Positions 29,855-31,929 of a stretch of 64,000 bases of DNA are shown piece after piece (position 1 is the first letter of the stretch; every line of letters begins with the position of its first letter). Under the pieces are notes generated by a model. It was not told the DNA's origin and searched no databases. It saw nothing but the letters and a program-made list of their open reading frames with translations. Source of the stretch: Octopus vulgaris (taxonomy: Eukaryota); NCBI GenBank assembly GCA_951406725.2, contig OX597828.1, positions 71,610,001-71,674,000 on the forward strand, in the 5' to 3' direction. The position numbers and the translations under genes were made by a program.

Positions 29855-30015
29855 TGCACACACAGACACACACGCACAGACACACACACGCACACACACA
29901 CACACACCTGCTTGGACATTTATATCCCTCCTCTTACTATAAATACATTCATACACACACACATATATATACATATACATGTACATACATACATATATAT
30001 ATATGTATATATATA

Positions 30016-30065
<50 letters not shown>

Positions 30066-30114
30066 CATACATATATACGTATATTTACATACACACACAC
30101 ACCCATACATATAT

Positions 30115-30662
30115 AATCAAAAATAAGCAACAAGGATATCCAGAGGTAATGCAGTACGATTGTTTCACGCAACTCCATTTAATTGAAGAATTGAACAACC
30201 ATTACATGAATTTAAATGCAGAGCAATCCTCAGCTGCACAAAGACAATTTAATTAAATTAAAATAGATGGACACATTAGTAAAATTTTACCTAAGATCTC
30301 CAAGAAGTTAAGGAGATGGACAAAGAACATTGTTGCTCTTCCTTCCACTTAGAAGCTACAATTTTCTTTGTCTATCTCCTTAACTTGGAGACTTCAGGCA
30401 AAATTATACTAATGTGTCCATCTATTTTAATTAAATTAAATTCTGTCTTTGTGCAGCTGAGGATTGTTCTGCATTTAAATTGATGTAATGGTTGCATTGT
30501 TCAATTAAATGGAGTTGCGTGAAACGATCGTACTGCATTACCTCTGGATATCCTTGACATTTATTTTGATTCTAATCACCTTATTTTGAAATTGTATGGA
30601 TAATACCGTACTAAATTCTGGTGCCTCAACTTAAGTACCATATTCATCTGAATCTAAACTTT
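30115..30662. mobile_element. Inverted pair of hammerhead-bearing repeats (Penelope-like inverted pLTR arrangement)
   Basis: Arms at ~30116-30328 and ~30363-30571 are reverse complements; the right unit continues to 30662. Confidence 0.85.
30451..30538 (+). ncRNA. Type I hammerhead ribozyme motif with extended stem II
   Basis: Stem I GTGCAG/CTGCAT; CTGAGGA at 30457-30463; 57-nt hairpin stem II; GAAA at 30521-30524; palindromic stem III ACGATCGT; GTA triplet at 30530-30532. Confidence 0.75.
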
Positions 30663-30667
30663 TGCTG

Positions 30668-30726
<59 letters not shown>

Positions 30727-30738
30727 TTATATATATAT

Positions 30739-31082
30739 ACAACTTATAAACAAGGGCAAAAGAAAATTATTTCTATGCCCATCTGCTGATAACAGACTTT
30801 TAAATCGTCAATTTCCACATATTATTATATACCCACTACAGAAATACATTGCGGTGAAATCGAGGAAAGCCAGCCACCCAGCCACCCAGCCACCCAGCCA
30901 CCCAGCCACCCAGCCACCCAGCCACCCAGCCAACAGAATTCTGTTGGCTTGCTTTCCTCGATTTCAGCACAGCATATTTCTGTAGTGGGTATTTAATGAT
31001 ATGTGGAAATTGACGATTTAAAAGTCTGTTATCAGCATATTGGCATAGAAATAATTTTCTTTTGCCCTTGTTTATAAGTTGT
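30739..31082. mobile_element. Foldback element / MITE with ~130-bp arms and an internal (CAGCCACC)n expansion
   Basis: ACAACTTATAAACAAGGGCAAAAG...CTTTTGCCCTTGTTTATAAGTTGT; central palindrome GCCAACAGAATTCTGTTGGC. Confidence 0.85.
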
Positions 31083-31175
31083 TTATAATTTTAACCTTTA
31101 AATGCTGCCACTTTTTTGATGAAATTTTTTTCTGTAAAAAATCTTCATCCTATATTAGTAGTAGTATTAGTAGTA

Positions 31176-31246
<71 letters not shown>

Positions 31247-31309
31247 CTCAGTGGATCATATATCTGAAAAAGAAGTTCACTCTAAAGGATAGCGTAGAAA
31301 TGTATTTAC

Positions 31310-31913
31310 ATGCAGTTAAATTTATGTCCGGACATTGAGTGACCAATAGCTTCGAATTCGTAAAACCCTTTGCTTCATAGATGAATTGTCAGACTTTAAT
31401 GATAGAAGTCATATAACGTCTCTTCAAACGGGATGTAGAAAACTGTTACGGTCAGTTAACATGTAAAAAAAGATTAATATACTCATTTTGAGCTTTAAAT
31501 AGGACGAATTATCTCCCTCAGACCGGTCTGGTTGAGATATCTTATGGATCTTGAATCTCTTTCAAACTCAAGACACGAGATCTATAGTTCCTGCTCGCAT
31601 TTCTAACGGAACATGCTGCAAGCGCGGGATTCCCCGTTCGTCGATTAGAGTTGGAAAAAGTTATTGCAGACCGGAAACAACCTAAGGGCGAAAACGCCCT
31701 GTTCGCCCTTTAAGTCTATAAGAGTTATCGAAGGGAGATAACTCTTTCTGTTTAATTCACAAATTAACTGACCGAGATGATTTTCTACCTCCAGTTTGAA
31801 GAGAGGTTATATGCCCTCCACCATTAGAGTCTGGCGAGTCGTCTATAAAGCTAAGGGCTTTATGGATGCGAAATAATTGGTCACTCTATTACCGGACATA
31901 TATTTAACTGCAT
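31310..31913. mobile_element. Older MITE with diverged ~150-bp inverted repeats
   Basis: Paired blocks ATGCAGTTAAAT.TATGTCCGG / CCGGACATATATTTAACTGCAT, CTCTTCAAAC / GTTTGAAGAG and CGGTCAGTTAA / TTAACTGACCG. Confidence 0.75.
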
Positions 31914-31929
31914 ATAAGTATTATATGTT

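Follow-up and report, generated by a model that had tools for sequence, protein, structure and literature searches.

The insertion at positions 30112–30664 of the window, by which we mean the whole 64,000-nucleotide stretch of DNA analysed here, is best read as a 5′-truncated, head-to-head copy of a Penelope-like retrotransposon (PLE) with Hydra-clade protein motifs and a predicted type I hammerhead ribozyme. The 57-nt stem II of this ribozyme shows covariation among related families, and the inverted pairing of the two arms is likely an integration by-product and not a switch. We give this reading as a whole a probability of roughly 85%. The single inverted locus is in itself of little importance: what matters is that a long stem II with covarying pairs extends the range of known hammerhead architectures and reveals a class missed by Rfam, and that, with thousands of copies, the positions of 5′ ends relative to the predicted cut can be tallied, so that in vivo cleavage becomes testable from the genome.

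Positions such as −205, +41 and +132 are given in nucleotides relative to the predicted hammerhead cut site. The inverted pLTR arm (30112–30358, minus strand) stretches from the 5′ end common to the family, at about −205, to the short 3′ end at +41 and carries no tail, and the sense pLTR arm (30359–30664, plus strand) is 5′-truncated at about −177 and extends to the long 3′ end at +132. Because the minus arm extends as far as 30358 and the plus arm follows directly, the layout is head-to-head (5′–5′), with the hairpin loop and inversion junction spanning 30338–30360 and the junction itself at about 30358/30359. The earlier note had seen here an inverted structure with a hammerhead on each strand, and both motifs are indeed present, at 30451–30538 (plus) and 30149–30239 (minus); the duplex of ~210 bp that it claimed also holds, although its length is slightly greater, with about 228 alignment columns at 87.7% identity (30112–30337 vs. 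30354–30574). The ~90-nt 'tail' found on one arm only (30575–30664, plus strand) is likely the stretch between two reverse transcription start sites, by analogy to the element treated in the consulted parts of PMC11167929. The insertion is flanked by (TA)n/(CA)n on the left (29960–30111) and (CA)n/(TA)n on the right (30665–30739), and no target-site duplication is discernible at these flanks. From the family majority the sense arm diverges by 3.9% and the inverted one by 4.2%, the latter being also the median of the copies. An antisense open reading frame across the hammerhead motif was considered and ruled out by stops in all frames. Elsewhere in the window, a second copy of the family (22901–~23330, minus strand) is more diverged (7.2% from the majority), not inverted, and features two U·U pairs at the base of stem II, and two other inverted-repeat elements directly beside the insertion, probably MITE-like, occupy 30727–31094 (arms of 150 nt, 91%, with an 8-bp tandem between) and 31303–31920 (arms of 165 nt, 79%).

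The plus-strand motif has every element previously described for it: a 6-bp stem I (30451–30456/30533–30538) with an outer G·U pair, CUGAGGA (30457–30463) and GAAA (30521–30524) as read from the sequence, a 2-bp stem III whose loop is palindromic (ACGAUCGU, 30524–30531), and a GUA site (30530–30532) with the predicted cut at 30532/30533. It thus presents the CUGANGA/GAAA/UH core between three helices that defines a type I hammerhead. The minus-strand copy is real but no exact mirror: its core is intact and its stem II measures 60 nt, but its stem III palindrome is broken by a G-to-A change and its apical helix disrupted by a 3-nt insertion together with substitutions, leaving it more damaged than its plus-strand counterpart. 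The motif is not a chance occurrence, as a descriptor scan of 765 kb of family-enriched loci returned 56 distinct motifs vs. 0–1 per shuffle in five shuffles. Within the family the core accumulates fewer substitutions than its surroundings (14/701, or 2.0%, vs. 3.7–4.1% in the flanks), so that the preferential core conservation on which the earlier note had staked its proposal is present but only modest, and the core is invariant across families whose endonucleases (ENs) are 51–77% identical. Rfam has no match at gathering score in the whole 64-kb window; within 30100–30680, hammerhead families are absent at E ≤ 10, and only hairpin-like miRNA models appear, below threshold.

In place of the G10.1–C11.1 pair, the window's family has U·U and most sister copies have G–C or G·U. 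Such a U–U pair next to the core had been flagged as non-canonical; U10.1·U11.1 proves, however, to be ordinary among Hydra hammerheads, being found in 14 of the 25 published families (table data of PMC8557442, as consulted) and in 14 of 35 distinct sense hammerheads from metagenome Hydra loci. The latter come from 77 loci retrieved with an RT homolog alignment, 37 of which carry a hammerhead; an earlier, first metagenome scan had given no match. Natural hammerheads with U10.1·U11.1 are also reported in the consulted part of PMC3088659, according to which U·U cleaves better than other mispairs. A GUA site is likewise normal in this clade. Three of the metagenome loci, L201 (+1074, +1271), L144 and L191, feature two different hammerheads near each other or on both strands.

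Stem II (30464–30520, plus strand) is opened by the U10.1·U11.1 pair and continues as stacked helices: helix IIa (30465–30467/30517–30519), a short run of pairs (30469–30470/30513–30514), helix IIb (30472–30478/30505–30511), and the apical helix IIc (30481–30488/30492–30499) with a 3-nt loop. Its unusual length, already remarked upon in the earlier note, is borne out by comparison: stem II measures 57–60 nt in the window's family and likewise in two sister groups with ENs 51–77% identical to an older-subfamily copy, vs. 12–26 nt in the 25 published Hydra families (PMC8557442, as above) and 10–30 nt in the 35 metagenome hammerheads. Judged from these sequences, the predicted stem II arm is about twice the longest length among the Hydra-clade relatives compared.

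Covariation supports this fold, in a distal register different from the one first suggested. Across 26 chosen sequences, the GTAATG/CATTGT register of the earlier note pairs in 78.9% of cells with a covariation score of 0.215, and a GAUGUAA/UUGCAUU helix with its 3-nt loop does better: the proposed structure has 88.0% of cells paired, compared to 23–52% in slid controls, and a covariation score of 0.408 vs. 0.193 in shuffled and at most 0.084 in slid alignments. The signal resides in IIa, at the base of IIb and in IIc, with three pair types per position (A–U/U–A/C–G in the apical helix, U–A/A–U/G–C near the base); the interior of IIb, where gaps spoil the alignment, was judged by eye and not counted. 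Two-sided changes affect 10 of 25 pairs, a count that is not significant in itself (136 of 500 shuffles at or above it), and since the 26 sequences, drawn from three family groups in the genome, fall into about four related groups of rows, the covariation counts stand for few independent events. Stems I, IIc and III also emerge unaided from RNAalifold. It is likely that selection on the elements has maintained the long stem II, as a module with a structural or protein-binding role. Pair 10.2–11.2 is A–U in the older subfamily and U–A or U·G in the younger one, with a second U·U in one subfamily. Stem II deletion copies also occur (L094 −4527, L028 and L091), the one in L094 having an intact core and a 35-nt stem II and thus offering a natural shortening control. 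Long stem II regions are seemingly common in this genome: eight further, unrelated type I hammerheads with stem II regions of 44–64 nt and a palindromic stem III lie at L113 −2004, L004 −3279, L128 +9795, L046 −114, L107 −9627, L044 −3306, L120 +3573 and L129 +2656.

The genome (2.8 Gb, 227 contigs) holds the family in high copy. With an arm as query we obtained 3595 candidates, of which 40 were scored and found 90–94% identical, and two exact patterns returned 697 matches (a single 29-mer) and 557, with none in reversed controls. The pLTR copies are dispersed, single or inverted, rather than arranged as the short tandem direct repeats, each with a hammerhead, of non-LTR retrozymes. Upstream of the pLTR lies an AT-rich UTR with internal duplications, preceded by a GIY-YIG endonuclease: EN, 3′UTR and pLTR are collinear on one strand in 7 of 20 ten-kb loci (L091, L093, L094, L101, L102, L103 and L106), and RT pieces are found upstream in four (L092, L095, L098 and L107). 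The linkage to RT–GIY-YIG reading frames that the earlier note had asked about is thereby established, as is its assignment of the arms to a Penelope-like pLTR with a type I hammerhead. Its notion of a separate non-autonomous family does not survive, the copies being truncations of a 4–5 kb RT–EN element as indicated by the EN-to-pLTR collinearity in seven loci. RT followed by a C-terminal GIY-YIG EN on the same strand as the pLTR, as well as 5′ truncation, an inverted 5′ copy and an optional tail, are features of EN+ PLEs that this family also displays. RT, EN and pLTR meet on one locus only in L107, of the older subfamily, and no intact ORF of the window's exact family was present among 40 ten-kb loci. 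The Pfam GIY-YIG match on L107 is weak (E 3e-4, below cut-off) and RVT_1 matched homolog P0065 only, with no useful match for the L019 EN or the L129, L109 and L098 pieces. A pLTR upstream of the ORF, in partial tandem, is seen in sister family L114 and in none of the own-family loci examined. In several loci (L032, L045, L054, L059, L093 and L102) the 3′UTR is expanded to several kb by ~780-bp internal tandem duplications. In three RNA-seq runs, of which about 6% each was covered, 656, 691 and 395 reads belonged to the family, with strands about equal and no pile-up of starts or ends at the cut; fragmented libraries of unknown strandedness would not show one. The window junction is bridged by no X21 read and by no listed contig of three other runs, the material deriving mostly from other copies or species.

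The assignment to the Hydra clade is a motif-based one. The proteins feature CxCX5C, DKT, YRDD and CxxC...E...N...CxH and lack CCHH, and section 11 of PMC8557442 gives CxCX5C, DKT, absence of CCHH, CxxC and CxH as marks of this clade. The CxCX5C linker occurs in L093, L095, L098, L102, L103, L105 and L107, and DKT replaces DKG in L095, of the window's own family, and in L114, L127 and L129; an N-terminal RWK is present in sister family L114, the sole own-family copy (L095) reading RMRWI. Among 98 full-length RT homologs, DKT is found in all 98, RW[KR] in 84, CxCX5C in 83 and a CCHH-like motif in none. Neptune-clade membership was considered first and dropped in view of the CxCX5C linker and the absent CCHH. 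The 3′ flanks of 30 loci, inspected by eye, show the (TA)n insertion preference. Hydra elements are described as generally short (<3 kb), a tendency as worded in PMC8557442, and the EN-to-tail part alone measures 2–5.3 kb here, with short UTRs in sister families. A search for Hydra-type endonucleases gave 17015 candidates in the genome, 150 of which were scored at 55–100% identity, so that the clade seems to be much more abundant here than PMC8557442, with one octopus family listed in the consulted part, would suggest.

To gauge how insertions begin and end, we used 98 of them, namely the first 100 of the 557 tail-pattern matches minus 2 duplicates, selected by tail pattern only. An adjacent inverted arm was called in 57, of which 6 are microsatellite artefacts and 51 credible, and in 40 of the 57 called it ends at +29 to +51; the family has two fixed 3′ ends, +41 and +132. 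Eight of the 98 carry a whole hammerhead on each strand and, since Penelope-13_HM has the same layout, the inverted pair is not peculiar to this locus. Arms start at −207 to −200 in 14 of the 98, as does the minus arm in the window (−205), with several sequence variants at this shared 5′ end, and the cluster suggests the RNA start. We propose that transcription would begin near −205 in the pLTR, that the RT–EN protein would nick both strands of the (TA)n target, and that internal cDNA priming would occur at +132 on one strand and at +41 on the other, the two cDNAs then being joined at their 5′-proximal ends into a head-to-head hairpin; the two-primer model is an analogy from the Poseidon-clade element PAc. 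For the hammerhead of an active element, cutting would require a same-sense dimer, formed in tandem transcripts via the palindromic stem III, and probably help from protein.

Sense arms end near the predicted cut more often than elsewhere. Of the 80 that reach the bin from −4 to +15, 16 end within it, compared to 1/64 in the next bin upstream, 23/443 over eight upstream bins and 16/275 downstream (Fisher p 4e-4, 4e-5 and 3e-4, respectively), the bin edge at −4 having been set after a first look at the ends. The chance of any of 13 bins being this high is 0.003, and p = 0.005 without the five ends at +12/+13. Sense-arm 5′ extents were used for these counts, the 'either arm' measure being polluted by 6 microsatellite matches. 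Only 6 ends fall within −4 to +8, and 5 of the 16 have an inverted arm passing through the cut. In vivo cleavage may have left this excess immediately 3′ of the predicted cut; stalling of the reverse transcriptase at stem I fits the same ends, and so does fold-back at a palindrome, given that GGATATCC at +13 invites it, that five ends lie at +12/+13 and that a palindrome at −60 also displays a slight rise (6/61). As 64 of the 80 sense arms read through the bin, uncut RNA was the main template. It is conceivable, though we hold it as speculative and rather doubtful, that the Hydra-clade PLEs of this host lineage evolved a hammerhead with a conserved three-helix stem II insertion as a docking module for the RT–EN protein or for dimer assembly, that thousands of these escape Rfam, and that the 5′-end excess is a fossil degradome of in vivo cutting and retrotransposed cut RNA.

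Two other accounts of the family deserve weighing. Its ribozyme could be a decaying relic, with the long stem II as neutral baggage and the U·U and further basal mismatches having inactivated it: one subfamily has the second U·U at 10.2/11.2, most copies stem from uncleaved RNA, and the copies, at a median of 4.2% from the majority, include no intact ORF in the 40 loci. We regard this as unlikely, however, as the 10.2–11.2 position has A–U in the older subfamily and U–A or U·G in the younger, U·U is the better-cleaving mispair as noted above, and the core does not vary across families with ENs 51–77% identical. Somewhat less probable still is that the ~340-nt unit from −205 to +132 propagates itself as a non-autonomous, SINE-like family derived from master copies of its own. 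The family owes its SINE-like look to many short copies sharing one 5′ end, and both the −207 to −200 cluster and its several variants speak for such a unit; yet other copies are continuous through the 3′UTR into the EN, a shared 5′ end is also expected from cDNA reaching the RNA start in an upstream pLTR, and the loci examined contain no tandem short arrays.

A functional duplex/ribozyme switch at this locus, as the earlier note had imagined, has in its favour a full core on each strand and arms able to pair over ~228 nt, and is nonetheless highly improbable. In the model, computed for the 553-nt plus transcript, the duplex at −310.7 kcal/mol is favoured by ~121 kcal/mol over the −189.5 kcal/mol obtained with the ribozyme forced, and in a growing chain the sense arm is captured by the antisense arm on emergence (173/182 nt). 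The arms differ at 17 of 209 positions (8.1%), close to the 8.5% median between loci; they have diverged as unrelated copies do, and therefore nothing kept them complementary. Furthermore, the stem III palindrome is gone from the minus copy, dimerisation in cis is impossible for copies on opposite strands, and the layout itself recurs, both in the sample above and in the consulted parts of PMC4209133 and PMC8557442. Hammerheads with a short helix III are thought to need dimers (PMC4209133 and PMC6765202, as consulted). Even in a single arm, the ribozyme fold (−47.2 kcal/mol) lies 11 kcal/mol above the minimum of −58.2 kcal/mol, and self-pairing of the stem III palindrome is worth −10.0 kcal/mol. 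With an integration by-product as the preferred reading of the inverted pair, the copy at 30112–30664 is likely inert because, by these models, the long duplex would form in any read-through RNA and sequester the ribozyme.

Most of what is described here has counterparts in known systems, which we compare on the basis of the consulted parts of each source. The Hydra-clade EN+ PLEs of Craig et al. 2021 (PMC8557442), such as Hydra-1_Obim and Penelope-13_HM, share the C-terminal GIY-YIG, the CxCX5C linker, DKT, the absence of CCHH, and CxxC and CxH, as well as (TA)n targets, a sense type I hammerhead in the pLTR and frequent U10.1·U11.1. Inverted 5′-truncated copies and tails are described there for PLEs, and in Penelope-13_HM the inverted 5′-truncated copy likewise gives a hammerhead on both strands. 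They differ in their shorter stem II (12–26 vs. 57–60 nt) and tail (30–40 vs. ~90 nt) and in being generally under 3 kb, whereas here the 3′UTR alone reaches several kb through its ~780-bp duplications; the same source calls it unclear what hammerheads do in EN+ PLEs. The metazoan PLE hammerheads of Cervera and de la Peña 2014 (PMC4209133) are similarly type I, with a helix III that is short and palindromic and is predicted to require dimers, occur mostly as single truncated copies, and include dual motifs 100–700 bp apart on opposite strands, but their 'larger than usual' helix II is 6–8 bp, as is the 'long helix II' of PMC13725137, compared to about 20 bp in three stacked helices here.

PAc, the Poseidon element of Frangieh et al. 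2024 (PMC11167929), is alike in its two internal RT starts defining the tail, its AT-rich targets, the cutting and extension of both strands, and its use of mainly uncleaved RNA as template; protein-assisted hammerhead cleavage has been shown for it, with cleavage dispensable in vitro. It belongs to another clade, its ORF starts inside stem II, and the consulted text reports that no RNA-seq reads terminate at the cut; here, by contrast, genomic 5′ ends are in excess beside it. Stem II length alone has PLE precedent, since PLE-X1_sMoe and PLE-X1_sTam have a long stem II plus loop, which the table cells of PMC8557442 File S2 put at about 53 and 47 nt, respectively; these are spike-moss, EN-minus elements listed under Chlamys and marked as deviating, with a short stem and a large loop, in a table that gives no covariation. 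A literature search, whose reach did not extend to Lünse et al. 2017, the supplement of PMC4209133 or that of the preprint 10.64898/2026.07.22.740005, returned no description of a three-helix long stem II architecture. Set against these systems, the PLE insertion is ordinary, and the hammerhead with its long covarying stem II is, provisionally, what is new.
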